Below are positions 22,369-43,340 of a DNA stretch of 64,000 nucleotides, one piece after another. Origin of the DNA: an uncultured Ruminococcus sp. (GTDB lineage: Bacteria; Bacillota; Clostridia; Oscillospirales; CAG-272). The notes beneath the pieces were generated by a model, which saw only the letters and a list, made by a program, of their open reading frames with translations, had not been told where the DNA came from and did no database searches. Each line of letters starts with the position of its first letter. Position 1 is the first letter of the stretch. The stretch is from assembly GCA_964630695.1 (NCBI GenBank), contig CAZVYZ010000001.1:8816-72815 (forward strand), written 5' to 3'. Both the position numbers and the translations under genes were made by a program.

Positions 22369-22383
22369 GGGGGTAAGGGAATT

Positions 22384-23622: not shown

Positions 23623-23651
23623 TTGAAAAATGTTCCATAATATGGTATACT
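23623..23651 (+). promoter_or_regulatory. Sigma-A promoter upstream of the hsdM remnant
   Basis: TTGAAA, 17-nt spacer, TATACT. Confidence 0.55.
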
Positions 23652-23685
23652 GTAAGATAAGAAGAACAGGACGGAGGACAAAACA

Positions 23686-24479: not shown

Positions 24480-24499
24480 AAGATTTTGGAGTGTGTGTG

Positions 24500-27241: not shown

Positions 27242-27565
27242 TTCAGAAATCCCGAAACAGCGTCTTACCGGGAGAGTTTGGTGCGATTTTTCGCCCGTTC
27301 GCATCCGGAATTTTGCTGTTCAAAATCTGTACCTGAGAACCATTTCTTCGGCATCATGCTTTGCAGCATTCATCTCCTGCGCTCAACGGAGCGGGTCTGC
27401 GGCTTTCAGGGACTCTGTAATGCCTCTTTCGGCTTTCAGGCGGTCAAGGATGAGGACAACCGCTGCTCGCACTTCTGCATCGATTTTGGCAAGTTCTGCG
27501 GCAAGTGTGCCGCTTGTCAGCAGAAAAGTATAGGTTCCTCAGCGATGGCGCTTTAGGTATGCCAG

Positions 27566-27955
27566 GTGCAACTGCCCGTATTTTCCGATTGTAATCGGTT
27601 TCTGTTCCGGCAGGGTAAGGAAGCCGCGCGCAAGAAGGCACGTGACGTCGCAGAAAAGTTACGCTCCATGAGGCTGAATGAGGCAGCCAAAAAGGTGGAG
27701 GACGGCATTGAAGAGACCTTGACGTACATGGATTTCCCGTCACAACACAGGCTGAAGATCCGGACAAACAATGTTATTGAACGTATGAATCGTGAAATAC
27801 GACGCAGAACGAGAGTTGTTGGTACATTCCCTGATGGAAAGTCTGCTCTGATGCTGGTCTGCGCCGGACTGCGGTATGTTTCGGGAAAGGAGTGGGGCTC
27901 AAAGCGGTATCTTTGCATGAAATATTTGACTGAAGCTGCGACAGAAGTGGCATAA
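27566..27955 (+). pseudogene. IS256-family (mutator-type) transposase, C-terminal stub
   Basis: AEKLRSMRLNEAAKKVEDGIEETLTYMDFPSQHRLKIRTNNVIERMNREIRRRTRVVGTFPDGKSALMLV matches the IS256 Tnp C-terminus; the N-terminal ~270 aa are absent. Confidence 0.8.
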
Positions 27956-28137
27956 ACACAGCAACTAAATAGCATCTGCCGTCGACGGAGTCAAGGGTCA
28001 AGATGAACGGTCTTGCGACCGCCCTTGACACCGCCGCCGACAGATGCTTTCAGACAATTAAGCGGAGCGTAGTCGCTCCATCGCCGGAGTATCGGCGCAC
28101 TACTTCATTTTATCAGAAACGAATTTGCGAAAAATAC

Positions 28138-28167
28138 TTGACAGTACCCATAAAACCGTGGTATAAT
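28138..28167 (+). promoter_or_regulatory. Sigma-A promoter with extended -10 for the dfx operon
   Basis: TTGACA, 18-nt spacer, TGgTATAAT. Confidence 0.65.
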
Positions 28168-28195
28168 AAATAAAAAGACATAGGAGGTATTTATT

Positions 28196-28579
28196 ATGTG
28201 TGATAACAACAAGTTTTATATTTGTGAGCATTGCGGTAATCTGATCGGTATGATCCACGATGCCGGTGTTCCCATGATGTGTTGCGGACAGAAGATGACT
28301 AAGCTTGAGCCCGGCGTTGTTGAAGCAAGCCACGAGAAGCATATTCCCGTCGTTTCGATTGATGGAAATATCGTTACCGTAACGATCGGCTCGGTTGAGC
28401 ATCCTATGCTTGAAGAGCATCACATTGAATGGGTATATCTTCAGACCGATAAGGGCGGCCAGCGCAAGTGCTTGGAGGTTGGCAAGCCTCCCGTTGTAAC
28501 CTTTGCGCTCTCCGATGAGAAGCCCATCGCTGCATACGAATACTGCAATCTCCACGGCTTGTGGAAGGCAGACATCTGA
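28196..28579 (+). CDS. dfx: Desulfoferrodoxin (superoxide reductase)
   Basis: 127 aa; N-terminal CEHCGN...CCG centre I, HIPV and EHHIEW...C..HGLW centre II. Confidence 0.9.
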   Translation: MCDNNKFYICEHCGNLIGMIHDAGVPMMCCGQKMTKLEPGVVEASHEKHIPVVSIDGNIVTVTIGSVEHPMLEEHHIEWVYLQTDKGGQRKCLEVGKPPVVTFALSDEKPIAAYEYCNLHGLWKADI

Positions 28580-28599
28580 GCTTAGGAGGATTACATATC

Positions 28600-29112
28600 A
28601 TGATGAATGCGAAAGTACGTGATCTTTTGAATCAGCAGATCAACAAGGAGTTTTACTCCGCATATCTTTACCTTGATTTCTCCAACTATTTCGAGGATGC
28701 AGGTCTTGTCGGCTTTGCCAACTGGTATAAGGTTCAGGCTCAGGAGGAGCGCGATCACGCAATGCTGTTCTATCAGTATCTCCAGAACGAGAACCAGAAG
28801 GTTACTCTCGAAGCGATCGCAAAGCCTGACAAGGTGTTCACCTGCCACATGGATGTTCTGAAGGCTGGTCTTGAGCACGAGGAGTACGTTACTTCCTTGA
28901 TCAACGACATTTATGCAGCAGCGTATGAGGTAAAGGATTTCCGCACCATGCAGTTCCTTGACTGGTTCGTTAAGGAGCAGGGCGAAGAGGAAACCAATGC
29001 AAACGATATGATCACCAAGATGGAGCTGTTCGGTGGCGATCCTAAGAGCCTTTATATGCTCAATCAGGAGCTGGCAGCACGTGTTTACACGGCGCCCTCC
29101 TTGGTCCTTTGA
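28600..29112 (+). CDS. ftn: Ferritin
   Basis: 170 aa from MMNAKVRDLLNQQINKEFYSAYLYL; ferroxidase residues in QAQEERDHA; AGGAGGA RBS before the 28600 ATG (the track ORF start 28561 is rejected). Confidence 0.9.
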   Translation: MMNAKVRDLLNQQINKEFYSAYLYLDFSNYFEDAGLVGFANWYKVQAQEERDHAMLFYQYLQNENQKVTLEAIAKPDKVFTCHMDVLKAGLEHEEYVTSLINDIYAAAYEVKDFRTMQFLDWFVKEQGEEETNANDMITKMELFGGDPKSLYMLNQELAARVYTAPSLVL

Positions 29113-29134
29113 TACATAAAGTAGGAGGTAGAAT

Positions 29135-29293
29135 ATGAAATACGTATGTGATGTATGCGGATGGGAATATGACGAGGAGCTCGGCGATCCGGATAACGGC
29201 ATCGAGCCCGGCACGAAGTTTGAGGATCTTCCCGAAAACTTTGAGTGTCCTCTTTGCGGAGTAGGCAAGGATAATTTCTCGAAAGCAGAATAA
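29135..29293 (+). CDS. Rubredoxin
   Basis: 52 aa [52 protein letters not shown] (two CxxCG knuckles); below the ORF-track length cut-off; GGAGG RBS. Confidence 0.9.
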
Positions 29294-29311
29294 TTTTAGT
29301 TTTAAGCTTAG

Positions 29312-29348
29312 GCGGCAGGGAGAAATCTCTGCCGCTTGTCTTTTAGTT
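29312..29348 (+). terminator. Rho-independent terminator of the dfx-ftn-rub operon
   Basis: GCGGCAG..GAG aaat CTCTGCCGC followed by TTGTCTTTT. Confidence 0.7.
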
Positions 29349-29491
29349 TTTTGTTGTGCATATCTTATTTTGTAAACTATTGTTGACGAAAGACGAAAAA
29401 AGTGGCATAATATTTAGAACAAATTTTCTACTTTTTGCGTTATAATAATTAGCAATTGTAAAAGGGGGCAATATGAAAAAACACAGTAAGA

Positions 29492-29908
29492 ATGCTATTC
29501 AATATAAAAGGGGAGCGTCGCTCAAAAAAATCGGAGGTACTATTACGGTCGATAAGCGCGATCCTTTGTTTGGTGTTCGTTCTTGCTGCGTGCGTCGGTT
29601 GCACCTCATATGCTTCATCTGATGAGGTTGCTACACGGAATGCAGAACTTAACGATGCAATTGCTGAACTTGATTCTCTCAAAGAAGGTTACGAAGCGGC
29701 TCAAAAAGAAATGGATGCCTTAAAGCCCGGTTGGGAAGAGGCTCAAAAGGAGTTAGACGCTCTTAAGACAAGCAACGAAACTGCGCAACAGGAAATTACA
29801 TCATTAAAGACCAGTAACTATAATCATAGCAAAATCATCACTTCACCTATAAGTGATGATTTTATTATATTTCGTTTTCACCCGACGTTTTATTGCAGGA
29901 TCTCTTAA
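29492..29908 (+). CDS. Putative lipoprotein with coiled-coil repeats, probably 3'-truncated
   Basis: Lipobox LAACVGC; repeats EAAQKEMDALK/EEAQKELDALK; the ORF tail reads through a terminator hairpin (about 29831-29863) that belongs to the convergent gene. Confidence 0.35.
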   Translation: MLFNIKGERRSKKSEVLLRSISAILCLVFVLAACVGCTSYASSDEVATRNAELNDAIAELDSLKEGYEAAQKEMDALKPGWEEAQKELDALKTSNETAQQEITSLKTSNYNHSKIITSPISDDFIIFRFHPTFYCRIS

Positions 29909-30771
29909 AGTCGAGAACTTTCAATGATGCTTTTTGCAATATTGAACAGCCTTATACATTCCGCTTCAAACGACTTGTCGTCAAGCGCTGCCGATGGCAG
30001 AGTCTCAAGCGAAAAAACACCGTCGAAGCCGACCTCATCCAAGGAACCTAAAAAAGCCTTCCAATCGATAATTCCTTTAGTAGGGAACATATGAGCGTCC
30101 CGATCTCCCGCGTTGTCGTGAACGTGCAATACTTTGATTTCCGTACCCAGCTTGCGGACGGAATCGGAAACGGATAAATCCGGAAATACCGCAACGTGTC
30201 CCGTGTCAAGACAGATTTTAAAATATGGGTCGTTTATCACTTTTATGAATTCAAGGACCTTTGTCGGGGTAGCCATGGAGAAACGGCGAATGGGCATGTT
30301 TTCAAGGCAGATTGTAACGTTCTGTAATCTTGCGTATTCAAGTAATTCGGACATGAACTCAATGTTAAGTTCCCATGTCTTTTGAGCGTTTTCAGTGCCA
30401 TCCTCCTCAACCCCATAAGGCATGATCGGATGCACCACCCAATATTTGCAGCCGAGCAGTCGTGTGGCAAAAATGGATCTCTTCATTTTTGCCATTCTTT
30501 CTCGTCGCAATTCAGCTGTTGAATCCTGTGGCGGCCATCTCCAAGGTCCGTGAACCTGTGAGATCTCAATATTTGCAAGATCAGCGGCTGCCTTTTCTTC
30601 AAGCATTTTTTCCTTCAGCTCCGAATCGTTTAACTTGTATATTTCGATATCAGTATCCGACATATTGTAGTCTACGGCAGAAAAACCGTGCTGTGCTATT
30701 TTTGCAAATTTTTCGTTGCCGAAGCGGGCATATTCGTTGTTATACGGTTGAAGACAAATACCTATTTTCAT
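29905..30771 (-). CDS. Sugar phosphate isomerase/epimerase (xylose-isomerase-like TIM barrel)
   Basis: 288 aa; QVHGPW, CLENMP, LDTGH, HVHDN motifs. Confidence 0.75.
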   Translation of the reverse strand: MKIGICLQPYNNEYARFGNEKFAKIAQHGFSAVDYNMSDTDIEIYKLNDSELKEKMLEEKAAADLANIEISQVHGPWRWPPQDSTAELRRERMAKMKRSIFATRLLGCKYWVVHPIMPYGVEEDGTENAQKTWELNIEFMSELLEYARLQNVTICLENMPIRRFSMATPTKVLEFIKVINDPYFKICLDTGHVAVFPDLSVSDSVRKLGTEIKVLHVHDNAGDRDAHMFPTKGIIDWKAFLGSLDEVGFDGVFSLETLPSAALDDKSFEAECIRLFNIAKSIIESSRL

Positions 30772-30932
30772 GTTTTTCTCAATCTCCTCCTGAAAACTTA
30801 ATATTACAATGTAGAATTATATCATATTTTAAAAATAAAATAAATACCTTTCAGCAATTTTATTTCTCGTTTTATTAAAAATACAAATGAGCAGAAACGG
30901 TATCGCCATAAGAATATTATCGATTAAAGCCT

Positions 30933-31775
30933 TTATCGGTATTGTTGCCTGTATTCGCGCGGGGTAACGGTCATTTCCTTTTTGAAAATCTGGTAGAAAA
31001 ATGCGGGGTCGGAATAGCCTACGATGTTGGCGATTTCCGCTATGGTTTTGTCGGTCTTTTCCAGAAGTTCGCAGGCTTTTTTGATCCGTACCTTCTGCAG
31101 ATAATCGCGGAAGGTCATACCTGTATTTTTTGTAAAGATGATGCTGATGTTGGAAAGACTGAAATTGACATTTTTACAGATCTCGGAAAGAGAAAGTGGC
31201 TGTGCGTAATTGCTGACAACATAGTTCTTGATATAGCTGGTAATGTCTTGTTTGCCGTCATCTGTAATTTCGTTGCGAACAAGATAAATGAGTGCGCAGG
31301 ATAGGTAGGAGCGAAGAATCTCCGTATACTCCCTATAATGTTCATTGTATTCATCAAGCATTTGTTGCATCAGAAACAAGACTTTTTTGTCATTGTCGTG
31401 GTAGATGTTCCGGGTTGGCTCGTTTTCAAACTCATTATTGTTGAAAGAGATCAGGAATTTGTTGATCATGTCGCTGAACTGATGCGTGTGAACCAACGCA
31501 TTGTCCAGAAAACTCGGAAGGAACATACAGTTGATAATAGAAAATTCCTCTCCAATTGACGCAGAGATGTAACTGTGAGTTCGATTTATGTCAATCAGAA
31601 AATAGTCTCCTTCGTTTATCATAACTTTTTTGTTTTCGAAAGTGTGATATGCCCTTCCTTCAAGTACATAAACGAATTCGAAAAAACAGTGGCTGTGCGG
31701 AGGAGTGGAAATGTGGTGGTCGCACAGCTCCAGACAAATGCCGTCCTGCAAGACTTTTTCGGCGCACTGCTCCAT
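30933..31775 (-). CDS. AraC-family transcriptional regulator (cupin sensor plus HTH)
   Basis: C-terminal LSEICKNVNFSLSNISIIFTKNTGMTFRDYL...IAEIANIVGYSDPAFFYQIFKKEMTVTPREYR; start uncertain (ORF open to 31856). Confidence 0.8.
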   Translation of the reverse strand: MEQCAEKVLQDGICLELCDHHISTPPHSHCFFEFVYVLEGRAYHTFENKKVMINEGDYFLIDINRTHSYISASIGEEFSIINCMFLPSFLDNALVHTHQFSDMINKFLISFNNNEFENEPTRNIYHDNDKKVLFLMQQMLDEYNEHYREYTEILRSYLSCALIYLVRNEITDDGKQDITSYIKNYVVSNYAQPLSLSEICKNVNFSLSNISIIFTKNTGMTFRDYLQKVRIKKACELLEKTDKTIAEIANIVGYSDPAFFYQIFKKEMTVTPREYRQQYR

Positions 31776-31899
31776 CTGGCTATCACAAATGATTACGGAT
31801 ATGTAAGTGCCCGTGAATATGCAATGGTAACGAATGATACGGTACGTACCAATCAAACCTATCCTAAGTTTGATTCCTCGCTCCAGATTATGAAGCCGG

Positions 31900-32090
31900 T
31901 GGAAAACAATGTTATCACCGGTCGTGAAAATTCAGTTGATCACATAACACTTTATAACCATGATTCCCTAAGCGTTAGACTGTTCGGTATAGTTGTTGAC
32001 GATTGCACACTGTCCGCTTCCGACCATTTGCCTATATTTATGGATTTCTCTTTTGGAGAGCCAGAGGGAGATTGGTCTGAATTTTATTGA
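31900..32090 (+). pseudogene. Endonuclease/exonuclease/phosphatase (EEP) family, C-terminal stub
   Basis: SVDHITLYNHDSLSVRLFGIVVDDCTLSASDHLPIFMDF parallels the C-terminus of the intact EEP gene (SVDHILFP...SLATSDHFPVFADF). Confidence 0.65.
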
Positions 32091-32111
32091 TACTCAAGGG
32101 AATACATAAAA

Positions 32112-33320
32112 ATGCAAATTACTTTGGAAAATGAAAAGGTTGGATTTAAACTTTCGTACAGAAAAGAGGACGGATACGAATCAAAAAGACTGACCGTCAT
32201 GCTGTACGATATGTTGAGTCGTTCCAAGAGAACCGAAGAGATACTGAATGGATACTTTATCCGCGTTATTCGAGAGAGTGAAGATCAGACAAATGTTTCT
32301 CCTGCATGCCGTATCAATGTTGATGGGAAGAACATTGATGTTATTGTAGGCGGTATACTCGCAGACGAGACGGCTTTGAAGTATTTTGACAATGTGCTTC
32401 GGAACGGAGAGATTTATTCTGCCGAATTGAGAGGTGATGAGGAGAGCGGCGGTGCAAATGTCTATGCGTTTAAGCGCCGTGGAAATCACAGAATTATGTA
32501 TTACAATATTCTGTGGGATTCCGATCCTTCCCATGCCCCCGGAGAGCGGAATATTATGACTGCAGACATCGTGCGAGAGTTTTCTCCGGAGGTCGTTGGA
32601 TTTCAGGAATGCGGCAGATTTAAAAGAAAACATCTCTACTTCAACGACATCGTAACGCAGATGGAGCGTGTAGGATACCGTGAGGCACCAATTTCAGACG
32701 TGAAAAACAGTTTTCACGATTGCAACTGTACACCGCTCTTTTACAAGGTGTCTGAGGTGAACTTCATTGAGGGAGCGTACCATTGGTATTCGATGCAAAC
32801 TCCCGGTCTTGGAGAAGGTGATGCTTCGTCGAAGTCATTGTCCTGGGGCGTCTTCGAATCAAAAAAGACAGGAGAACGCTTCATAGTAGTGACGACTCAT
32901 TTGTGCACCCAGGTGGAGGATATCCGTGAGCAACAGGCAAAAGAAGCGATAAAACTGTTTGAAGACCTTCATGAACGTTACGGGTTGCCTATAGTTTTGG
33001 GAGGAGATCTCAACTCCAATCACCACGACAAGGGGTACCGTTGTTTCAGAGACTTTGGAAGATATGACAGTGCGGCGGGTTTGGCAAGTGAATATGTTTC
33101 ACCCGAACAGACTTTTCACCCGTATCCGGAATTCTGCCCCGAATTGGGATTGTGTATGCCGGGCGATGGCGTATGGTATGAAACCGAAAAAAGCGTTGAC
33201 CATATTCTGTTCCCGCTGAGAACAGATTCGCTTGATGTAAAAGTGTTTGGCGTTGTTGTAAATTCTCATTCTCTTGCAACCTCGGATCATTTTCCGGTAT
33301 TTGCAGACTTTAATTTTTAA
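32112..33320 (+). CDS. EEP-family phosphodiesterase/nuclease-fold protein with unknown N-domain
   Basis: 402 aa; VVGFQE, TTHL, GGDLNS and SDHFPV motifs of the EEP fold. Confidence 0.7.
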   Translation: MQITLENEKVGFKLSYRKEDGYESKRLTVMLYDMLSRSKRTEEILNGYFIRVIRESEDQTNVSPACRINVDGKNIDVIVGGILADETALKYFDNVLRNGEIYSAELRGDEESGGANVYAFKRRGNHRIMYYNILWDSDPSHAPGERNIMTADIVREFSPEVVGFQECGRFKRKHLYFNDIVTQMERVGYREAPISDVKNSFHDCNCTPLFYKVSEVNFIEGAYHWYSMQTPGLGEGDASSKSLSWGVFESKKTGERFIVVTTHLCTQVEDIREQQAKEAIKLFEDLHERYGLPIVLGGDLNSNHHDKGYRCFRDFGRYDSAAGLASEYVSPEQTFHPYPEFCPELGLCMPGDGVWYETEKSVDHILFPLRTDSLDVKVFGVVVNSHSLATSDHFPVFADFNF

Positions 33321-33461
33321 TTCTTCTGACTCGTAAGGACACAACAGTGTCCTTACGAGACTATTTAAATCAATATGGTAATTGTTTGTAATACATAATT
33401 GCGGACGCTTCTTAGTGATGAAATTGTCTGATGATTGTACGCATCAGAAGGAGGGGGAAAA

Positions 33462-34967
33462 ATGAAAAAGTATGTTTTTTGCCTTTGCTTATGTGTATTG
33501 TTCTTATTGCTTCCACTGTTTACGTCGTGCCGCGGTGATGGTGGGGCGGATACAAATACAGAGCCGAATACCACAACAACCGCTGAGGAAACAACAACAT
33601 CAATCAGAAATGACCAGGAGCCTGAGAATATGCCGCACGATGAAAAATTATTGATTTGCGGCGTCAACATTACTTCGTATCGGATCGTATACGGAAGATC
33701 GCCGCTGACTCGCAGGGCTTCCAATACAGGAAAAACCATAGGAGATGACATCGACAGTTTAATGCAGGGAACCGAGACTGCCTGCGATTTCGATTTTCAA
33801 ACAGCAATTCGCCTGCGTGACCTGATCAAGCAGTATTACAACTATGACGTGGAAGTGGTAAATGATTCCGATGCAAAACACGAAAGCAGATATGAGATCC
33901 TGGTAGGCTATACCGATCGCTATGCTTCTTCAGAGGCGAAAAAAGCATTGAAGGATTCAGCAGATCGTTTCAAGGTGGAGCCAAATCCTTATTCAACTTC
34001 CAAGGAAATGACGCAGTACCTGGTTTGCGGCGGATCGTACGGTGCAACCTGGCATGCTGTGGATGAGATCGAGAAATTTTTGAAAGACAATCAGAATTCC
34101 ACAACAACTGATCTTTCTACACTGAAACAGGATAACGGACAGTATGACTTTACAGTAGTGGCATGCGTAGGCGACAGTATCACCCGTGGGTCGCAGGCAT
34201 TTCCTGACGGACCTTATGCAAACAGCACGGGAATTGCGGCAAAATTCGGTCCTATTGCCGCGCCGATCTACCTTGAACAGTACCTTAGTTATCCCGCAAC
34301 CATGCAGAGAGAACTGTGGAAGGATGCGATCGTCTATAATTTCGGTCGCGGCGCATCTACTGCACGCAACTATGGAAACGATCAATACTATGCAGGAAGC
34401 GAGCAATTTAAGAAGTGTCTCGACACATCCAACAGCAATATTGATTTCGATATTGTTTTTCTGATGCACGGAACAAATGATTCCGGCATGGAAGGAGGGG
34501 CACAAAGCTGGAGTGAGTCAAGCAAGGCGAATTTTAAGTCTGAGATCAAAAATCAAATTGATAAGATCCGCGAGGGCTCTCCGAATGCCTCGTTCGTTTT
34601 GAATCTTGTGCCGCACGCATGCAATGAAGTTAGCAGTTCGTCTGAGAGAGAAAATAAAGAAGCGGTCCGCACAATTCAGAAAAGTCTTGCAAAAGATCTC
34701 AAGGATGCAGGCTATCAGATTCGTCTCTTTGATATGGAGACCTTTATGATAGAAAACCTGAGTTCCGATGGCAAGTGCGGAAGCAATCAGACTGACGAGT
34801 GGGCGGCTCACGAAGCCTATTATAACGTCAAAACAGATACCGGTTCACGTGACCCCCTTCATCCGAATTATCGCGGATACGGAATGATGGCACAGGGACT
34901 TATAAAAGTTGTGGATCATCTTGTGAACAACGCTCCGGCGACAAAATATATGATCAGTATAGAATAA
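33462..34967 (+). CDS. SGNH/GDSL hydrolase lipoprotein
   Basis: Lipobox LFTSC; block I VACVGDSITRG, block III LMHGTNDS, block V DPLHPN. Confidence 0.75.
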   Translation: MKKYVFCLCLCVLFLLLPLFTSCRGDGGADTNTEPNTTTTAEETTTSIRNDQEPENMPHDEKLLICGVNITSYRIVYGRSPLTRRASNTGKTIGDDIDSLMQGTETACDFDFQTAIRLRDLIKQYYNYDVEVVNDSDAKHESRYEILVGYTDRYASSEAKKALKDSADRFKVEPNPYSTSKEMTQYLVCGGSYGATWHAVDEIEKFLKDNQNSTTTDLSTLKQDNGQYDFTVVACVGDSITRGSQAFPDGPYANSTGIAAKFGPIAAPIYLEQYLSYPATMQRELWKDAIVYNFGRGASTARNYGNDQYYAGSEQFKKCLDTSNSNIDFDIVFLMHGTNDSGMEGGAQSWSESSKANFKSEIKNQIDKIREGSPNASFVLNLVPHACNEVSSSSERENKEAVRTIQKSLAKDLKDAGYQIRLFDMETFMIENLSSDGKCGSNQTDEWAAHEAYYNVKTDTGSRDPLHPNYRGYGMMAQGLIKVVDHLVNNAPATKYMISIE

Positions 34968-35004
34968 CGCGTGTTCAATCTGTCAAAAGACGGCGGCGAT
35001 ACAG

Positions 35005-35094
35005 TGCAGTTTAACCGGAGTTTGGGTAACTGTTAATTCTCACTCTTTTGCAACCTCAGATCATTTTCCGGTCTTTTCAGATTTTACGCTTTAG
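35005..35094 (+). pseudogene. EEP family, terminal ~25-aa stub
   Basis: ...VNSHSFATSDHFPVFSDFTL* is nearly identical in pattern to the end of the 32112-33320 product. Confidence 0.6.
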
Positions 35095-35357
35095 ATCATC
35101 AACAGATACGAGTGTTTATAACTGATTTTATCTTCGTGTGACAAACAAAAAACAGCAGTGACGACCCCCGAATTTGGGGGCCGGCACTGCCGGTGCCTCG
35201 GGTGACACTGAATGTGGTCCCCGGGGCTTTATAATAATAAAGTTTGTTATACTGTAATAATAATGACGAAAAAATGGCGTGAAGAATAAATAAAGCACAA
35301 ACAATAGATAACCAAGAAATTGTTAAATGAAAGAATATAAAATATTAGGTGGTTAAA

Positions 35358-37487
35358 ATGGTTGTTCGGGAATGTAGTTTTCAATTTGCAAAGCCCGTAT
35401 GGGAATGCACAACAGAGACTGAGATGAATCGTGTTCTTGTTTTTTCTGCAAACATTGTCGGGGGAGGGCAGGTGTTGTTGCGACTTGCGGGTTCGTCGAT
35501 GTACCGGGTGTTTATCAATCAAAAAATAATACACTGGGGACCTGCGCGTGCTGCAAAAGGCTATTTCCGGGTTGATGAGTTGCAAGTCGGAGATTATTTG
35601 ACTTCCGGAAACAACCTTGTGGAGATAGAGGTCACGGGTTACTACTGTTCCAGTTACGACTGGCTTCGGATTCCATCGTTTTTGTGCGCTGAGTTGTTGC
35701 GTGGCGGTGAGATGATCGCCGCGACCGGTGTGAACGGTTGGAAATGTTGTCATGATGGCAGAAAGATACAGAGGACAGCCAGATACTCATTCCAACGGAC
35801 TTTTTCCGAGGCTTATGACTATCGGCTCGGTAAACTTGAAGAAGTGAAAACCGAAACAGCGCAAGCCGGTTTATTCATTGAAAGAAATGTTCCTGCGCCA
35901 TCGATGATATATGAACCGATACAGAGCATCCCTCAAAGCGGAAAGGTAGCATGGCTTGAGGAGGCGCCCGAGTGCAAAAGTGTCTTTCTGACCAGAGCCG
36001 GAAAAAAGTTTGACGGATATCCGATGGAGATCATTGACGTCAATCAAGTCGGTGACGCTTTGCACCTGTCTTTGTACGATGAAAAGGAATGTTCGTCGGT
36101 ACTTCCGGTTTCAATGCCCGGAAATACGTTTTTAACAGCAAAAATGGCGGGGAACAGAACAGGGTTGATACGCCTGTCTGTTGCGTGCACCGAAGATTGC
36201 GACCTATATCTGACTTTTGATGAAATACTCGTCGACGGAAGGATAGATTTTCTCCGTATGGACTGCGCAAATGTTATACTTTACCGTCTGCGCGGTGGAG
36301 AACGTTACGAGATACTGACAGCGGAACCGTACACCTTACAATATATGAATATTATCCCCGTGGGCGGAGGCATTGTACTTGAGAAAGTGGGAATCGTGCG
36401 TATCGATTTTGATCCCAACGAAATAATTTTTCATGCGGATTTCTCTCCGGATGAAGCGGATATAGAGGAGATCTATGACGCAGCCATAGAAACATTCCGG
36501 CAGAACACACTTGATATTTTTATGGATTGCCCATCAAGGGAGCGTGCAGGCTGGCTCTGTGACAGCTTCTTTACGGGCAGAGTCGAAAAATTGCTTACGG
36601 GAAAAAATACAGTGGAGAAAAACTTCCTCTCCAACTTCATTATGGCAGATGATTTTTCTCCGTTGCCTCAAGGAATGATCCCCATGTGTTATCCCGCAGA
36701 TCATCCCAACGGTAATTATATACCCAACTGGGCTATGTGGTTTATCGTGGAATTGAATGATTATTTTGAACGTACAGGGGATTCGGAGCTTGTTTTACAG
36801 GCGAAGGATCGCGCCTATGGAATATTGAACGCATTGAAAAAATTTGAAAACGCCGAAGGACTTCTGGAGCGTCTTGAAGGTTGGGTATTTATTGAGTGGT
36901 CAAAGAGCAATGCTCTGGTTCAGGATATAAACTATCCGAGCAACATGATGTATTATCTGGTAAAAAAGTTGATGTCACGGCTTTACGGAGATACGGAACT
37001 TGAAAAAGAGGCAGAGCGGCTGCGCAATACGATACGACGGAATAGTCGTTACGGTTTGTTTTTCTGCGATAATTCGATATATCGTGACGGAGTTCCCGTT
37101 CTTTCCGGAGAATGTACGGAAAGTGCGCAATATTATGCTTTTTTCACCGGAGTTGCTACGCAAGAGGAAGACGCGGAACTTTGGAATGTTCTTGTCAGAG
37201 ATTTCGGACCCGACAGAAAGAAAACCGGTCTTTGGAAGGAGATATATTTTTCCAACGCCTTTATCGGAAATTATCTGCGTCTTGAATTGTTGGACCGTGC
37301 AGGCGAACACGAAAAACTGAAAGAGAATATTCGCGGTTACTTCGGATATATGGCAAAGCGTACCGGAACCCTATGGGAAAATGACACCGAAAGCGCAAGC
37401 TGTAATCATGGATTCGCATCGCACGTGTTGGTATGGCTCTCACATTTGGGATACGGACATTGTGAAGAGGAAAAACAATCATTATAA
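35358..37487 (+). CDS. Alpha-L-rhamnosidase-like (GH78-type six-hairpin) glycosidase
   Basis: About 709 aa; MDCPSRERAGWLCDSFF resembles the GH78 catalytic-domain motif; start ATG 35358 after AGGTGG (track start is 35349). Confidence 0.5.
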   Translation: MVVRECSFQFAKPVWECTTETEMNRVLVFSANIVGGGQVLLRLAGSSMYRVFINQKIIHWGPARAAKGYFRVDELQVGDYLTSGNNLVEIEVTGYYCSSYDWLRIPSFLCAELLRGGEMIAATGVNGWKCCHDGRKIQRTARYSFQRTFSEAYDYRLGKLEEVKTETAQAGLFIERNVPAPSMIYEPIQSIPQSGKVAWLEEAPECKSVFLTRAGKKFDGYPMEIIDVNQVGDALHLSLYDEKECSSVLPVSMPGNTFLTAKMAGNRTGLIRLSVACTEDCDLYLTFDEILVDGRIDFLRMDCANVILYRLRGGERYEILTAEPYTLQYMNIIPVGGGIVLEKVGIVRIDFDPNEIIFHADFSPDEADIEEIYDAAIETFRQNTLDIFMDCPSRERAGWLCDSFFTGRVEKLLTGKNTVEKNFLSNFIMADDFSPLPQGMIPMCYPADHPNGNYIPNWAMWFIVELNDYFERTGDSELVLQAKDRAYGILNALKKFENAEGLLERLEGWVFIEWSKSNALVQDINYPSNMMYYLVKKLMSRLYGDTELEKEAERLRNTIRRNSRYGLFFCDNSIYRDGVPVLSGECTESAQYYAFFTGVATQEEDAELWNVLVRDFGPDRKKTGLWKEIYFSNAFIGNYLRLELLDRAGEHEKLKENIRGYFGYMAKRTGTLWENDTESASCNHGFASHVLVWLSHLGYGHCEEEKQSL

Positions 37488-37605
37488 ATAGGGGAAAGTG
37501 TATGCGCTTTGAGATGGCATACATCCACCGACGGTTTGGTAAGTCAATTTAATCGGTTTATCTGAGCGCGGAAAACATGACACAAAAAATAGGGAGATGC
37601 GAAAA

Positions 37606-39372
37606 ATGAAAAAAGAAATGAACGGAATTGCTTTTGATATTGACCTGAACGGACAGAATGCGGAATTTGAAACAGAAGAATTGGAAAGTGAGCCTGCAAT
37701 CAATCTTTATCGCATACGTTTTACACTTTACAAAAAGGCTGTCCCGAAAAAAATAACCCTGCAATTCCATTTTCCGAGAAACGATATTTTTTCCGTTTTT
37801 AAGCCGAATGCAAAGCTGATCTCCGGAGTACTGCCGGATTGGAATCCCGTAAAATCATCCGCTTCGGCGGTTTCGGGTGCTCCTGTGCTCGCACTGATCT
37901 CCAAAGGTGACGCTAACAGATTGACGGTTGCGCTGTCGGATTGCAAAACGCCTTGCTGTATCAAAGCGGGCTTCAACGAAGCGCAGAAGGATATGACGGT
38001 CTGTGTCGAGATCTTTACCTCCGCCGTCAGCCCTTTGTGTGAATATGAAACGGTGCTTCGTCTGGATATGCGCAACATTCCCGCATCCCGAAGCATTTCG
38101 GATGTCACCGTCTGGTGGAAGAGGACAGGATACAGCACCGCATATCTGCCGCAGGCTGCAGCAATGCCTATGTACGCACCATGGTATGCATACCAGCAAA
38201 AATTTACCGATGATATTCTGCTTGAGGAATGCAAGTATGCCAAAAGTCTTGGGATGGAAGCGATTATCGTGGATGACGGCTGGCAGACGGAGGACAGCAG
38301 CGGCGGTTACGCTTTTTGCGGGGACTGGAAAATATGCAGGAATAAGATACACGATATGAAAAAGTTCGTTGCCGATTTGCATCGGATCGGCATGAAGATC
38401 ATTCTGTGGTTTTCCGTGCCGTTTATGGGGAAATATGCAGAATCGGTGGAACGCTTCAGGGGAAAATATCTGTACTTTAACAGTAATCTTGATTCGTATG
38501 TTTTTGACCCGCGCTTTCGGGAAGTCCGGGAATATCTCGTCGGAACCTATGCGGATTTTCTGAAAACATACGATTTGGATGGTTTCAAACTGGACTTTAT
38601 TGATGCTTTCCGTCTGACAGAAGAATCGCCTGAAAACTATGCAGATATGGATCATGTATCGCTCGAGGATGCTGTGGATGCATTGCTTAGTGAAATATGT
38701 AATCGCCTGAAGGAAATAAAGCCGGATATCCTTTTGGAATTCCGTCAGCATTACACGGGAGTAATGATGCAGAAATACGGAAATATGTTTCGTGTCGGGG
38801 ACTGCCCGGGGGATGCAACCACACTTCGCGTCGGTGTTGCCGAGCTGAGAATGCTGACAAGGGGAGTTGCCATACACAGCGATCCGCTCATCTGGAACTA
38901 TCGGGATCCCGTTGAATATGCGGCATATCAGCTGAATCACTCCATCTTCGCTGTGCCACAAATTTCGCTGAAGTTCGGGGAAATCAGTGAACAACACAGA
39001 AAAATGCTGTCATATTACCTTCAATACTATAAAGAAAACAGAGAAATCCTGTTGTTCGGTGAATTGTACGCGGATGGCTTTGAACAGAATTATAAGTCTA
39101 TTACAGCAAAAGGCGCTGATAAAGAGATCACGGTATTGTACGGAAAAAATATTTATGATTATCATTCAAAAAGTAGAATATACATTGATCTGATAAATGC
39201 GACTGCCGGGACAACTGTGTTTATCCGTTCAGAAGCGGAAACTGAGATTTGTATGAAAATAACGGATTGCAGAGGGGAAAATGTTGAAAACAACAAAGTG
39301 GTTCTGAGATCCGGGATGAATGAATTTTGTATTCCGATTTCAGGTTTTATGAATATCAAGAAGATATCGTAA
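37606..39372 (+). CDS. GH36-type alpha-galactosidase family protein
   Basis: AIIVDDGWQ, GMKIILWF and GFKLDFID motifs; start 37606 preferred for spacing from GGGAG. Confidence 0.6.
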   Translation: MKKEMNGIAFDIDLNGQNAEFETEELESEPAINLYRIRFTLYKKAVPKKITLQFHFPRNDIFSVFKPNAKLISGVLPDWNPVKSSASAVSGAPVLALISKGDANRLTVALSDCKTPCCIKAGFNEAQKDMTVCVEIFTSAVSPLCEYETVLRLDMRNIPASRSISDVTVWWKRTGYSTAYLPQAAAMPMYAPWYAYQQKFTDDILLEECKYAKSLGMEAIIVDDGWQTEDSSGGYAFCGDWKICRNKIHDMKKFVADLHRIGMKIILWFSVPFMGKYAESVERFRGKYLYFNSNLDSYVFDPRFREVREYLVGTYADFLKTYDLDGFKLDFIDAFRLTEESPENYADMDHVSLEDAVDALLSEICNRLKEIKPDILLEFRQHYTGVMMQKYGNMFRVGDCPGDATTLRVGVAELRMLTRGVAIHSDPLIWNYRDPVEYAAYQLNHSIFAVPQISLKFGEISEQHRKMLSYYLQYYKENREILLFGELYADGFEQNYKSITAKGADKEITVLYGKNIYDYHSKSRIYIDLINATAGTTVFIRSEAETEICMKITDCRGENVENNKVVLRSGMNEFCIPISGFMNIKKIS

Positions 39373-39394
39373 CCGTAATAAATAACGTTAATAA

Positions 39395-39727
39395 AGTGGA
39401 GAACCGTTACTTATATGTGCCGAAACGACCGGCATAGTAGCAAGGGACTCATACGGATGGTACGCGGACATACCGACAATATTGATACTTCCGATGCCCT
39501 TGAGGTCATATATTATTGCAAATTCATATCAGATCGAAGAACTGAAGCCGATTCTTCATGAGCTGAAATGTATCAGCCGCAATCTCAATCAGCCTACCAT
39601 GCTTTCACATCAGGGCGTGGTGCGGACGGTCAGTCTGACCGAGACGGCGGACGGCATCGGTCGGTGCTATGAGGCAATCAACAGGCTGTACGCCTACACC
39701 GATGCGGTGATACGGGGCGGAGGTTGA
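39395..39727 (+). pseudogene. MobC-like relaxosome protein, stub without a credible start
   Basis: LHELKCISRNLNQPTMLSHQG resembles the MobC IGNN(L/V)NQIA motif; the N-terminal part is missing. Confidence 0.5.
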
Positions 39728-39733
39728 TATTCT

Positions 39734-40189
39734 ATGGCAACCGTTATTTTCATCAAGGAGAGCAAGCAGACACCGAGTGCCATGCGCGGCTGTATCCGTT
39801 ACTGCGTGCAGGAGAAGAAAACGGTGGACGCAGACGGGCGGCAGTATGTCGGCGGGGTCAATTGCCTCGGCGCTCATGCTTACGAGGAATTTATGGCGAC
39901 GAAGAATCTGTACCGCAAGGCATCCGGTGTCTACTTCTACCGGTATGTCCAATCCTTTCGTCCGGGCGAAATCCGGTCTTACGAAGAAGCCCATCGCATC
40001 GGATTGGAGTTTGCCGGGAAGTCTTTTCCGGGATACGAGGTTTTGGTCGCCACGCATCTGGATGCGTATGACGAGAACGGCGCACAGCGCATCCAAAACC
40101 ATTTTATTGTCAACTCGGTCAGCTTTGAGGACGGAAGGAAGATTCACTTTACAGGTTATAGTGAACGGCAATCGATTTTTGAAAATTGA
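39734..40189 (+). pseudogene. MOB relaxase (relaxase/mobilisation nuclease domain), N-terminal ~150 aa only
   Basis: MATVIFIKESKQTPSAMRGCIRYC..., HLD......QNHFIVNSVSFEDGRK histidine-triad region, then a premature stop. Confidence 0.65.
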
Positions 40190-40240
40190 ATATTTGCCTG
40201 TCAGCACGAGCATACTCACAGAAAAAGGAAGGTGAGCCGC

Positions 40241-40480
40241 ATGGAAATACAGGTACACGATGACAAAAAATATGTTTCCGTATGGCTCACAAGGTCCGAG
40301 GCGTCGGATGCCTCGGTGCGCGAACAGCTGAAGCCGCTCTATGGGCAGTACCGTGCACAGAAATATCGCGTGGTGGTGTTCGAGTCCGGAACCGGTGATC
40401 TGCCAACGCTTACGAAAGATTTGCTCCGGCATTCCCTGGAAGTCTGCGCCCGCAGGGAACAGGAGCAGGATTGCCGGTAA
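40241..40480 (+). CDS. Small conserved hypothetical of clostridial mobilisable elements
   Basis: MEIQVHDDKKYVSVWLTRSE...YRVVVFESGTGDL; recalled as a transposon-associated small ORF, function unknown. Confidence 0.4.
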   Translation: MEIQVHDDKKYVSVWLTRSEASDASVREQLKPLYGQYRAQKYRVVVFESGTGDLPTLTKDLLRHSLEVCARREQEQDCR

Positions 40481-40528
40481 AGACGAAAATCGGGCTGTTT
40501 CAATTTCAGTTGAGACAGCCCGATCTAC

Positions 40529-40591
40529 GATTGAGCAAAATCTCCGGATTTGACTGAGCAAAATTTCGGACTTTGACTGAGCAACTTTTTT
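40529..40591 (+). repeat. About 2.7 tandem copies of a 23-bp iteron
   Basis: GATTGAGCAAAATCTCCGGATTT / GACTGAGCAAAATTTCGGACTTT / GACTGAGCAACTTTTTT. Confidence 0.8.
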
Positions 40592-40603
40592 GTGAGTGTC
40601 AAG

Positions 40604-40945
40604 CTACTTGTTTTCCACCCGTGAAATATCAGACAGATCATCCAACTCAACCACGGGCATTTTGATGTCATCACTTTCGATAAACATCAACATATAGATT
40701 GGGTAATAGATCAGATTTCCCTTGACCTCCACATTATAATTGGAAAGGACAAAGCCTTCCTCAATGGCATAATTGGAAATATCCACGATGTTGCTCAGCG
40801 CGGAGTGCCGCTGATAGCTTTTTCCGCTTTTTACTTCAATCGGCAGAACCCGTCCCTTGTATTCGATCACAAAATCCAGCTCTCCGAATTTTCTGTTGTT
40901 ATAGTAGGATTGACACTTTTGCAACAGAAAATTATGCCGTTTTGA
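40604..40945 (-). pseudogene. DUF4143-containing ATPase (COG1373-like), C-terminal stub
   Basis: FGELDFVIEYKGRVLPIEVKSGKSY matches the DUF4143 core; no AAA domain upstream. Confidence 0.6.
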
Positions 40946-41048
40946 CATTTTTTCAATAAGGAACGAACTGAAACTGACACTTTTCAAACATTTTGTCTGT
41001 GATTGCAAGTTGCAAATGATTGTTTTTCCTCTTTCTGTCTGTTTCCCC

Positions 41049-41077
41049 TTGACTTTTCCCACTTCTTGTGATACAAT
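41049..41077 (+). promoter_or_regulatory. Sigma-A promoter with extended -10 for the recombinase
   Basis: TTGACT, 17-nt spacer, TGaTACAAT; AAGGAGA RBS and TTG start at 41112. Confidence 0.65.
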
Positions 41078-41111
41078 ATTATCAATAAAAATAAGAAAGG
41101 AGATAACGATA

Positions 41112-43340
41112 TTGCCGGAGCAATTAAAGATTGCGGCATACACCCGTATTTCGGTTGATTTGGAGTTGGACAAGGACAACACGAGTATCGAAAACCAAAA
41201 AACGATTATCGGGGATTACTGTCGCCTGCATTTCCCGACAAGTACGGTGGATTATTACGAAGACCGCGACCGCTCGGGGTACACCTTTGAACAGCGCCCC
41301 GACTACTGGCAACGACTCCGACCGAAGCTGATGCGCGGGGATTATGATATTTTGATTGTCAAAGACCTGAGCCGATTCTCCCGTCGGACGGGCAAGGGGC
41401 TTGCCGAATTTGAGGATTTGGCGGAAAAGGACATCCGCATCATTGCCATCGGGGATGATGTGGACTACTACCAAGACCACATTGACGACTGGATGAAGAT
41501 CAAACTCTACTTCTTCGTCAACGAAATGCCTGTCACCGATGCCAGCCGCAAGGTGTCCGATGTGATTGCAAGCCGTCAGTCAAAGGGCGAATGGATTTGT
41601 TCGGTGCCTTACGGCTATGTCATTACCAACTCCAAAAAGATGACCTTTGAAGTGGACGAAGCCGCCGCTGAGGTGGTGCGGACGGTGTTCCGGCTCTACA
41701 TCGAGGGATATGGCTACAAAAAGATTGCCAATTATCTGACCGACCGCCACATCCCCACGCCGCGAATGCGGGAAAAGGCGAGGAAAGAAGCCGCCGGAGA
41801 GGAATACAAAGCGAAAACGCGGGAGCAATGGAGCATCATCACGGTTTCGGAGATGCTGAACAACGATTTCTACATTGGCACGCTCCGCGAACGGAAGTAT
41901 CACCGCAGAAAGATCAACGGCGACGATGTGGCGCTGGACAGAAGCGAGCATATCGTCTTTGAAGATCACCACGAGCCGATTGTGGACTACCGTACCTTTG
42001 CCACTGCGCAGGAACTGTTGAAGCAACGCACCAAGAACAATTACCGCGGGGTCAAGAAATACGACAACACCTATGCCGGATTCCTGTTCTGCGGGGATTG
42101 CGGCAGTCCGATGTTTGCCATGAGCCGCAAAGACCTTGCCGAAGCCTACACCTGCGGAACCTACCATGTGCGGGGATTGGCGGGCTGTACCTCCCACCAT
42201 GTGCGGGCGGATTTTCTGGATTCGGTGCTGAAGGAGTATGTTGCCAAGGTACGGGACAATTCTGCCGCCATGCTGCGCATTCTGGAGGAAGTTCTTTCCC
42301 ATGAGGAGCGCTCTGCCGGAAGCGGGAAACGCGCGGCGGAGGATCTGCAGGCGCAGATTGAGGTGGAACGGGCAGAACTGAAAAATCTTGCCCGGCAAAA
42401 GGTGCGGGATATGACACGCCACCCGGACAATGCGGAGATCCTGGAGGAAACCTACGATTCGCTGATTGAAGAATCCAACAGCCGCATTGAGGGGCTGACC
42501 AATCAGCTTGCAATGGTTGCGGATACCACCAACACGATGGTGCGGGTCAATCGGGTGTCGAAAACGGTAATCGAACTGTTTGACGAAATTCTTTCCAAGG
42601 GCAGGCTGGACAAAAACGACCTGCGGCTGATCATCGACCGCATCATTGTCTACGAAGACCACATCGACATCAAACTGAAAGCCGATGTGGACGAGCTGTT
42701 GCGCACCGGAACGATTGCGCACATGAAAACGGATGCGGAAAGCGAAGTACCCGTAAATTTTAACCGCGACACGGGAAATAACGAAAATGCCACGGCGGAA
42801 CCCGCAAAAGTGGCAGTCCAACGCGCCCAAAAGCGGCGCGATAAGGTTTTTCGTGTCAATGTAATCAGTGGCGGCGACCCGCTTGAAATTTATACAGACC
42901 GCGAGGGTAAAGTCATCTTCAAAAAATATTCCCCCATCGGAGAACTTGCGTCCTTTGCGTCCCAATATGCCGAGACGTTGCATCGCGTATGCTCGCTCGC
43001 AGTCATTATCTGCGACCGCGATGCGATTATTGCCTGCTCGGGGGTCCCCAAAAAGGACTACTCCGAAAAGTCCCTCTCGGCTGAATTGGAGCATGTGATG
43101 GAGGGCAGAAATCTGTATTTCCATCGCGAGGGGGATGCCCCTATGCCGGTTCTCGGCGAGGACAGTGCATTTGAGGTCAGTTGCGCCATGCCGATTATCA
43201 GCGAGGGCGATGTAGTGGGATGTGTTGCGTCAGTCGTCGACCGCACCCGTGACACACGCCGCGATGCCCCGACGGGCGAGGTGGAGAAGAAACTGATTCT
43301 TACTGCCGCAGGCTTCCTCGGCAAACAACTGGAGACCTGA
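41112..43340 (+). CDS. Large serine recombinase whose ORF continues in frame into a spoVT 3' fragment
   Basis: Resolvase domain LKIAAYTRISV...SIENQ...DRDRSGYTFEQRPDYWQ...VKDLSRFSRR; recombinase domain; zinc ribbon FCGDCGSPMF...CGTYH...CTSHH; coiled coil. The last ~155 aa are SpoVT-like. Confidence 0.85.
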   Translation: MPEQLKIAAYTRISVDLELDKDNTSIENQKTIIGDYCRLHFPTSTVDYYEDRDRSGYTFEQRPDYWQRLRPKLMRGDYDILIVKDLSRFSRRTGKGLAEFEDLAEKDIRIIAIGDDVDYYQDHIDDWMKIKLYFFVNEMPVTDASRKVSDVIASRQSKGEWICSVPYGYVITNSKKMTFEVDEAAAEVVRTVFRLYIEGYGYKKIANYLTDRHIPTPRMREKARKEAAGEEYKAKTREQWSIITVSEMLNNDFYIGTLRERKYHRRKINGDDVALDRSEHIVFEDHHEPIVDYRTFATAQELLKQRTKNNYRGVKKYDNTYAGFLFCGDCGSPMFAMSRKDLAEAYTCGTYHVRGLAGCTSHHVRADFLDSVLKEYVAKVRDNSAAMLRILEEVLSHEERSAGSGKRAAEDLQAQIEVERAELKNLARQKVRDMTRHPDNAEILEETYDSLIEESNSRIEGLTNQLAMVADTTNTMVRVNRVSKTVIELFDEILSKGRLDKNDLRLIIDRIIVYEDHIDIKLKADVDELLRTGTIAHMKTDAESEVPVNFNRDTGNNENATAEPAKVAVQRAQKRRDKVFRVNVISGGDPLEIYTDREGKVIFKKYSPIGELASFASQYAETLHRVCSLAVIICDRDAIIACSGVPKKDYSEKSLSAELEHVMEGRNLYFHREGDAPMPVLGEDSAFEVSCAMPIISEGDVVGCVASVVDRTRDTRRDAPTGEVEKKLILTAAGFLGKQLET
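42870..43340 (+). pseudogene. spoVT: spoVT, 3' portion (from about residue 31 of about 180) lacking its own start and AbrB-type N-terminus
   Basis: GGDPLEIYTDREGKVIFKKYSPIGELASFASQYAE...VIICDRDAIIACSGVPKKDYSEKSLSAELEHVMEGR...PIISEGDVVGCV...GEVEKKLILTAAGFLGKQLET is collinear with B. subtilis SpoVT EGDPLEIFVDRDGEVILKKYSPISELGDFAKEYAD...ICDRD..IAVSG.SKKDY...TAAGFLARQMEQ (recalled sequence). Confidence 0.8.

Follow-up and report, generated by a model that had tools for sequence, protein, structure and literature searches.

A large serine recombinase gene that reads in frame into spoVT in an uncultured Ruminococcus: probable attR junction of an integrative island targeting a single site in a forespore gene

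How a recombinase comes to share an open reading frame (ORF) with a sporulation gene, and what becomes of that gene, is the question raised by a 64,000-nucleotide stretch of DNA from an uncultured Ruminococcus sp. (GenBank assembly GCA_964630695.1, contig CAZVYZ010000001.1, positions 8,816 to 72,815; this whole stretch is called the window below). According to the ORF list and the sequence, the window holds an open frame at 41010–43340, with a probable start at TTG 41112 and a product of 742 amino acids (aa), that begins as a large serine recombinase (LSR) and ends as spoVT. The latter encodes a forespore regulator, dependent on sigma-G in Bacillus subtilis and forespore-specific in both B. 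subtilis and C. difficile. The original prediction, made on the letters of the window, saw here a mobile island interrupting spoVT and offered two outcomes, restoration of the gene by excision or a gene that is simply dead. Our analysis indicates that the ORF is probably the attR junction, that is, one of the two hybrid attachment (att) sites, of an integrative and originally mobilizable island whose LSR targets one site in spoVT, and that the copy in the window has decayed.

Both parts of the product can be recognized. AAGGAG is found at 41097–41102, 9 nt before TTG 41112, and in the 742-aa product Pfam places a Resolvase domain at residues 8–159 (E 3e-12), a Recombinase domain (PF07508) at residues 184–306 (E 2e-23), a Zn_ribbon_recom domain (PF13408) at residues 322–377 (E 8e-12) and a SpoVT_C domain at residues 611–741 (E 1e-36). 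The recombinase domain followed by the zinc ribbon gives the domain order of an LSR, and the motif AAYTRIS(14)VD of the catalytic region, unchanged in 11 aligned homologues, would make the resolvase domain one of the serine-nucleophile type. Among proteins in the PDB, the SPbeta integrase SprA (9DXH) aligns over residues 54–513 of the window protein, and across residues 380–513 this alignment implies a possible coiled-coil insertion within the zinc-ribbon domain. These domains and the SPbeta integrase match bear out the reading of the ORF from TTG 41112 as an LSR. The ~60-aa "low-complexity tail" said to follow the recombinase is a variable linker in front of a conserved ...RDKVFRVNVISG motif, which is encoded by an arm of attP, the attachment site of the free element.

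From that motif the frame runs on into SpoVT at about residue 31, as had been proposed. In a tblastn search residues 31–177 of B. subtilis SpoVT align to window 42873–43334 with 44% identity (E 1e-36), and residues 581–741 of the window protein match residues 24–177 of SpoVT in the PDB (2W1T). The NCBIfam profile TIGR02851 (spore_V_T) is matched over positions 23–180 of 180 with a score of 148 bits against a cut-off of 235.9. For SpoVT residues 1–30 there is no match in the whole 64-kb window, even at E = 1000 and a word size of 2, in agreement with the earlier statement that the first ~30 codons and the promoter are absent here. The likeness to SpoVT is thus that of residues 581–741 to 2W1T, with a tail 95% identical to an intact SpoVT (P0121); having neither residues 1–30, which form half of the swapped-hairpin DNA-binding domain, nor the promoter of spoVT, the window product is not a SpoVT protein. 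A fused frame from recombinase to spoVT is far beyond chance.

The origin of the SpoVT part can be traced in relatives with an uninterrupted gene. Using a rebuilt full-length SpoVT as query, we found intact 185-aa SpoVT proteins up to 95% identical to it, the best of them being P0121 from a sister species, and the locus with this intact spoVT (L011) is syntenic with the window on both sides. Window 14121–21390, which holds YchF, a two-component system and an ECF-transporter gene, has 82% identity to L011 1–7395, while window 42873–43341 has 86% identity to L011 10091–10559, position 10091 being nucleotide 91 of the L011 spoVT. The break falls at an identical codon in every fusion examined (codon 30/31, before GDPLEI), and the DNA on its two sides has diverged to different degrees: the window and L006 are 97–99% identical in the recombinase and 86–90% in the tail, L019 and L021 99.0% and 61%, L034 and L041 96% and 61%, and L070 and L073 97% and 72%. 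Near-identical recombinases with divergent tails imply that related elements entered very different hosts at the same spoVT position, and, since recombinase and tail diverge independently, the tail is host DNA captured at each integration and not a heritable part of the recombinase. This decoupling and the L011 synteny establish the fused tail as host spoVT DNA and, taken with the junction alignment, support the prediction that a mobile LSR-bounded island splits the coding sequence of this sporulation gene at codon 30/31. A SpoVT-like tail in many unrelated insertion contexts, which had been named as contrary evidence, is not what we see: the tail is found family-wide, always at the same spoVT site, and diverges like the host gene. 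The idea that the tail belongs to the recombinase family is ruled out, because divergence changes precisely where the two parts meet and because L011 and L017 are intact host alleles whose flanks are the same.

The insertion core is the 8-bp sequence GGCGACCC in spoVT codons 31–33, which is common to attB, attP, attL and attR. All four sites were rebuilt from relatives: attB from L011, attR from ~59 loci, attL from 119 of the 121 matches listed in a metagenome scan, and one attP-like joint from L182. The matches listed lie in at least 120 stretches of DNA, and in 119 of the 121 SpoVT codons 1–30 precede the core and the P' arm. An inverted copy of the P arm serves as the P' arm at attL in L073, L080 and, among the matches listed, the 119 metagenome loci. 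As aligned, attP therefore appears to be an imperfect inverted repeat made of the P arm GTCAAYGTTATCAGTGRC, the core GGCGACCC and a P' arm close to the reverse complement of the P arm; inverted-repeat arms, an 8-bp core in attB, attL and attR, and attL and attR as hybrids of attP and attB are the arrangement of LSR attachment sites. Both ends of the element are present in L073 (spoVT codons 1–30 at 75–164, junction at 11753, element of 11.6 kb) and in L080 (codons 1–29 at 543–629, junction at 11726, element of 11.1 kb), where the same core comes after the 5' fragment and the reverse complement of the right arm after the core, and L145 is a third complete element of 10.0 kb with attL and attR on one contig.

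Within the core, crossover probably takes place at the central GA, to judge from the alignments. This dinucleotide is the midpoint of the 16 nt that separate the inverted-repeat blocks, the core of an element inserted in reverse (L046) reads GGCGA|GGC, and the junctions of two recombinase fragments (P0241, P0242) diverge directly past GGCGA. A crossover ~38 nt further right, suggested by the differences between L017 and L006 after the core, was considered and rejected, as that stretch diverges like host DNA among the fusions and L017 is a variant allele. Recombination of attP with the spoVT core at the central GA would yield two chimeric ORFs, one at attR and one at attL.

Several further observations concern these sites. 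The intact spoVT allele at L017 489–1046, whose downstream flank is that of the L006 fusion (97% identity), carries the core variant GGAGACCC, with differences clustered in the 38 nt immediately to the right, and may be a poorer target for the recombinase. In seven attL loci (L104, L134, L164, L177, L185, L187, L196) and in P0243 the 5' fragment itself breaks off at codon 10/11 of spoVT, where ...KIFGF[YH]LTQA meets DDLGRVVIPKEI...; spoVT may have another insertion or deletion point here, unless a single lineage has been sampled repeatedly. At L047 9992, L063 6772 and L074 8873 a sequence resembling an att half-site, RTRATAACAWTGACAG, with 3 mismatches to the P' arm, lies between a -10-like TGATACAAT and the start codon of the recombinase, a position that hints at a recombinase binding its own promoter.

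The reason for the fusion is to be sought in the position of attP, which lies within the last ~30 codons of the recombinase gene and in the same frame as the spoVT core at codons 31–33. For most of the 119 attL matches listed, the frame meets a stop 25–31 codons past the core. Of 82 distinct tails, the 73 with a length of 25–33 aa yield the pattern GDPxL[TI]TLTPxx[RK]FxxAxxxLxxRxG, conserved at the protein level at F14, A17, L21, R24 and G26. Because recombinase and spoVT share a frame at the core, the peptide encoded at attL is the native C-terminus of the recombinase in its excised form; L182 encodes a recombinase with this native C-terminus at a P-core-P' joint, ending in ...DVNVIGDGDPSHTTLTPIDRFCLAIHSVVERAKARH. 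With attP inside the 3' end of the recombinase gene, integration exchanges C-termini. The attR product would be the recombinase without its ~25-aa native tail and fused to SpoVT 31–185, the form seen in the window, and the attL product would be SpoVT 1–30 with the ~25-aa recombinase tail, an ORF of ~58 aa behind spoVT's own promoter. It had been predicted that the recombinase would lose its SpoVT extension on excision; the attL tails and L182 agree with this and indicate that it would regain a conserved native tail of ~25–28 aa. The fusion thus appears to be a by-product of the position of attP and not a designed protein, its universality being explained by one ancestral choice of frame, frozen by the constraint on the P-arm DNA.

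We also considered whether the left end of the element supplies a replacement for the 3' part of spoVT, and rejected this, since the attL frame stops after 25–31 codons in most of the 119 listed matches and the sequence is the recombinase's own tail; with no replacement for the displaced part, the gene is truly split. Of 74 distinct spoVT 5' ends, 52 have upstream of them the motif G[CT]ATAA-17 nt-A[CT]A[AC]TA, for which shuffled sequences give an expectation of 0.6, and which we take to be a predicted promoter resembling those of the forespore factors sigma-F and sigma-G rather than those of sigma-A. A protein search with the native C-terminus returned 11 matches, consisting only of attL ORFs and two secondary-site junction fragments. 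Two loci are more complex. L215 has two attL-type modules ~730 nt apart (458–634 and 1192–1368), each with a ribosome-binding site, SpoVT 1–30, core, P' arm and tail, identical upstream and with differing tails, and L182 has its native-C-terminus recombinase (62–1309) 1.3 kb upstream of an attL module (2632–2811). Either elements in tandem or nested within one another, or element-borne copies of the 58-aa ORF, could account for both.

In the window itself only the right-hand junction is seen (Table 1). The composition profile shows a G+C content of 0.41–0.48 between ~24 and 41 kb, and ~2.7 kb of the host DNA of L011, including the spoVT promoter and codons 1–30, is absent. By synteny with the uninterrupted L011, attL and the 5' part would be expected at window 21391–24400, and neither attL nor a P' arm was found in the 64-kb window by protein search or fuzzy DNA match. 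Both gene halves around an element flanked by attL and attR are therefore not found in the window; they are found in L073, L080 and L145. Since attL, the promoter and codons 1–30 are missing, spoVT cannot be rebuilt from this locus, and the suggestion that excision might restore the gene in this genome is not supported: these parts are absent where synteny predicts them and the island has decayed. The other suggestion, that spoVT is simply dead, fits this locus best, given the lack of a 5' part and the truncated relaxase, ATPase and hsdM genes. We infer that spoVT at this locus is permanently inactivated, and that the recombinase gene is intact behind its sigma-70-like promoter with no partner site nearby.

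Table 1. Features of the island and of the spoVT junction in the window
Feature	Position	Strand	Basis
Island replacing the DNA between the ECF-transporter gene and spoVT codon 31; without attL and without the spoVT 5' fragment	21391..42872	.	Synteny break against L011, composition
hsdM (type I methylase), cut after 57 of 311 methylase-domain positions; rearrangement joint near left edge of island	23686..24297	+	Pfam HsdM_N and partial N6_Mtase
Cargo: superfamily 1 helicase with DUF2726 nuclease-like C-terminus, defence-like	24455..27241	+	Pfam AAA_11, AAA_12, DUF2726
MobA/VirD2-type relaxase, truncated (151 aa; 705–713 in relatives)	39734..40189	+	Pfam Relaxase, E 2e-22
Conserved small ORF, 82 aa, just upstream of recombinase; candidate accessory or directionality factor	40232..40480	+	79–80-aa gene in L001, L002–L010
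AAA_14/DUF4143 ATPase gene fragment (192 aa; 456 aa in L006)	40604..41182	-	Weak Pfam DUF4143 match; full-length in L006
Predicted sigma-70-like promoter of recombinase gene, TTGACT-17-TACAAT with upstream TG	41049..41077	+	Consensus scan, 10/12 matches; pattern match
Element-derived part of ORF, LSR residues 1–587: resolvase, recombinase, zinc-ribbon, variable linker, conserved ...RDKVFRVNVISG end	41112..42872	+	Pfam, NCBIfam, PDB 9DXH
P arm of att site, GTCAATGTAATCAGTGGC, last 18 nt of element	42855..42872	+	Conserved as GTCAAYGTNRTC... in 59 loci, recombinases 52–99% identical
8-bp core GGCGACCC; inferred crossover dinucleotide GA at 42876–42877	42873..42880	+	Junction alignments
Host spoVT codons 31–185 and stop (half AbrB-type domain and GAF-like SpoVT_C), in frame with recombinase	42873..43340	+	tblastn, Pfam SpoVT_C, 86% DNA identity to L011 10091–10559

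The contents of the island can be read from the window's relatives. In L002–L005 and L008 a NikA-like gene, a MobA/VirD2 relaxase of 705–713 aa and a conserved 80-aa ORF adjoin the recombinase, and in L080 a Mob_Pre relaxase and an AAA_25 ATPase do so; no relaxase was seen in L073 and L145. The cargo differs even among identical recombinases (L002, L003, L004) and includes defence-like genes, namely BrxL in L006, an RdRP-like gene in L002 and AAA_15/AAA_21 ATPases in L080, as well as a toxin-antitoxin-like nucleotidyltransferase in L145. The relatives' flanks, viewed over up to 10 kb, show no conjugation apparatus. By its annotated genes, this make-up would be that of integrative mobilizable elements. 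The 82-aa ORF upstream of the window's recombinase has no match in Pfam, PHROGs or PADLOC, and family searches against these three identified no directionality factor within the element. In the window, the truncated hsdM directly before the helicase (23686–27241) appears to be what is left of defence cargo at a rearrangement joint, and the helicase matches the PADLOC models Mokosh MkoC and MkoA (E 7e-56 and 5e-47); a minus-strand ORF, 23497–24264(-), is a wrong call in a region that encodes plus-strand genes. Beyond the junction, the spoVT remnant and an AraC-family gene converge on a long, near-perfect hairpin at 43354–43445, with a stem of ~40 bp, a folding energy of -68.8 kcal/mol and a z-score of -9.8 relative to shuffled sequences; it may serve as a terminator for both directions or represent a small repeat.

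The complete elements raise the possibility of a developmental switch in which intact elements excise during sporulation and rebuild spoVT, as skin does for sigK and SPbeta for spsM. The two gene halves lie co-oriented around the element in L073, L080 and L145, an N-terminus resembling SpoVT and bearing a start codon is kept at 102 of 118 attL sites among the matches listed, and the forespore-type promoter motif (GYATAA, 17 nt, AYAMTA) is retained at 52 of 74 distinct spoVT 5' ends against the 0.6 expected. The tails are free of stops, with a dN/dS of 0.03–0.06 where recombinase and host may have co-diverged, and serine-recombinase elements in sporulation genes provide precedents (PMC5595907). 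At the window locus, however, such a switch is impossible, as attL is missing; attP is absent among the 121 core and P' matches listed; and inside the element neither a directionality factor nor, although no promoter analysis was made there, a sporulation-specific promoter came to light. The conservation follows equally from recent insertion with selection on intact alleles, the L006-type species being polymorphic (intact L017), and the attL core of L080 carries the mutation GGCGCCCC together with a changed codon 30, as would a locked relic. Because spoVT acts in the forespore, an excised circle would need to survive in the spore and insert again when the spore germinates, failing which the element would be lost from the germ line. 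On balance we regard a reversible switch as unlikely, and its more specific form as very unlikely. In that form the conserved ~25-aa C-terminal helix of the recombinase, joined to SpoVT 1–30, would come under the forespore promoter of spoVT, and either forespore-specific production of this ~58-aa peptide or ligand sensing by the captured GAF-like domain would trigger excision and rebuild spoVT in the forespore, the circle then lasting through dormancy and inserting again at germination. If true, this would be the first intervening element that is reversible and compatible with the germ line, its directionality being determined by the swap of protein termini and not by a separate factor.

The same four domains are found in 120 of the 120 best protein homologues (69–100% identity). 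Scanning one genome for each species gave 484 loci that encode a relative, and we read the architecture of the best 80 of these 484 (52–99% identity): the full fusion, with a match through residue 740–742, is present in 75 of the 80, four are cut by contig ends and one (L046) is reversed. The hosts are uncultured Clostridia, Acutalibacteraceae, Oscillospiraceae and Ruminococcus from gut and rumen, and among isolates R. flavefaciens ATCC 19208 and 007c and Ruminococcus sp. Marseille-P6503. The best species-representative match is Eubacterium sp. CAG:180 (L018), whose spoVT tail has 89% DNA identity to that of L001, a locus itself 100% identical to window 39661–53340; this stretch is identical to a contig from sequencing run SRR6824180. 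In L046 and L141 the orientation is opposite and the recombinase reads into antisense spoVT with no SpoVT_C fusion, which implies that this fusion is not required by the recombinase family. In these two loci (L046 3480–3700; left end of L141) the recombinase 3' end meets the spoVT 5' fragment head-on, with the core reading GGCGAGGC on the spoVT strand, and L046 comes from the same genome bin as a normal fusion (L024). P0241 and P0242 are C-terminal recombinase fragments in which ...VNVISGG(E) is followed at once by something unrelated, either a YoaP-like domain or a hydrophobic stretch, and their junctions are probably insertions at secondary sites. A scan of IMG/VR for free, excised or phage-borne copies found none, and the plasmid collection held only distant recombinases of <30% identity. 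The phage collection gave two "Bacteriophage sp." scaffolds of ~50% identity, of which the one examined, MT836658, is another chromosomal spoVT fusion; this 9.2-kb sequence from a faecal sample (L218) has recN, argR, NAD kinase and a TlyA-like gene beside a distant 700-aa spoVT-fused recombinase, and is a fragment of a bacterial chromosome rather than phage DNA.

So uniform a fusion could also be a selected protein, in which the GAF-like domain serves for sensing or oligomerising, or in which the swap of C-termini sets the direction of recombination. The in-frame joining is universal in the common orientation; the gene is intact while its neighbours are truncated or replaced, both in the window and in L006 and between L085 and L088, which share only the recombinase gene and the host flank; and the conservation of the native ~25-aa tail at the protein level suggests that the C-terminus matters to the enzyme. 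The tail, however, is captured anew in each host and diverges as host DNA, the opposite-orientation elements L046 and L141 read antisense spoVT unfused to SpoVT_C, and the same recombinase end is joined to unrelated sequence at the secondary sites of P0241 and P0242. A single ancestral choice of frame with the P-arm constraint explains the universality, and full-length queries bias searches toward intact copies, so that selection for the fusion strikes us as highly doubtful. An assembly chimera or chance read-through, for which there is only the general possibility attached to any metagenome-derived window, is refuted by the identical junction in independent assemblies of many studies, isolate genomes among them, and by the 100% identity of L001 over 39661–53340.

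Some observations sit less easily with an attR junction left by a decaying island. Decay elsewhere in the island has spared both the recombinase ORF and its 155-codon tail, and a premature stop in the tail occurs in none of 56 readable fusion junctions. In L085/L088/L093 and L006/L018 the dS of the recombinase (0.18–0.34) is about that of the tail (0.18–0.43), with a tail dN/dS of 0.03–0.06; ancestral insertions in these groups would mean that selection still acts on the split gene or on the fusion. Against ancestral insertion, L085 and L088 do not share the element interior upstream of the recombinase, and L006 and L017 show at least one species to be polymorphic for the insertion; recent insertion with selection on intact alleles gives the same dS and dN/dS values. 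Our view covers 64 kb, and an attL displaced by rearrangement or a second spoVT copy elsewhere is possible. An excised circle, with attP on a free element, was not found, and current mobility is read from the distribution of the family.

The island combines traits of several known systems. Serine-recombinase gene-intervening elements of spore formers (skin, SPbeta, vfbin and gin) interrupt mother-cell genes, and some, such as gin, are not phages (PMC5595907). As in skin/SpoIVCA (sigK), SPbeta/SprA (spsM), vfbin (spoVFB) and gin/GirC (gerE), an LSR-bounded element splits a sporulation gene here, the recombinase gene adjoins an att site, the halves are co-oriented in L073, L080 and L145, and the closest solved structure is that of SprA. 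The spoVT element differs from this class in its target, which acts in the forespore and not in the mother cell, so that excision would affect the germ line. It differs further in having attP inside the recombinase ORF, in the relaxases that many copies carry, in the lack of any sporulation-controlled directionality factor among our findings and, for the window copy, in the absence of attL. Small islands of 10–25 kb with an LSR, a relaxase (MobA/VirD2 with NikA-like, or Mob_Pre) and cargo recall Tn4451/Tn4453, with TnpX and the Mob protein TnpZ, and the N-terminal domain of TnpX is among the PDB matches of the window protein. Target choice by TnpX is looser; the spoVT family differs by its single, highly specific target in one conserved gene and by a recombinase ORF that spans attP. 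An att site inside the integrase gene is known for a bacterial tyrosine recombinase in int/intX of Myxococcus phage Mx8. In "suicidal" tyrosine integrases of the SSV type, encoded by viruses and plasmids of archaea, whose arrangement has been called exclusive to archaea, the att site likewise lies within the recombinase coding sequence and integration changes the protein (PMC8371274). Those integrases are tyrosine recombinases whose gene is split and inactivated, whereas the spoVT LSR swaps only its last ~25 codons and leaves the recognisable domains intact. In the literature we found no relevant description of spoVT with a serine recombinase, an intervening element or a mobilizable element, nor of such a case in any forespore gene, in line with the earlier remark that this situation is undescribed. 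LSR integration, a mobilizable island and a sporulation-gene target are known parts; the forespore target and the swap of protein termini are unusual.

To our knowledge, every sporulation-gene element characterised so far interrupts a gene of the mother cell, and excision there is free of cost to the element. With 484 loci in species-representative gut and rumen Clostridia, the islands described here either routinely knock out spore maturation or restore the gene without losing themselves. Routine knock-out of spoVT would bear on the frequent loss of sporulation in gut commensals and on their transmission. Because the C-terminus of this bacterial serine recombinase changes when the element integrates, the family is a natural experiment on how the C-terminal region affects directionality, and it also supplies an attP/attB pair that is well defined and comes in many natural variants. 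Finally, the capture of spoVT at each integration explains the ~740-aa "recombinase family protein" with a SpoVT_C domain that recurs in annotations.

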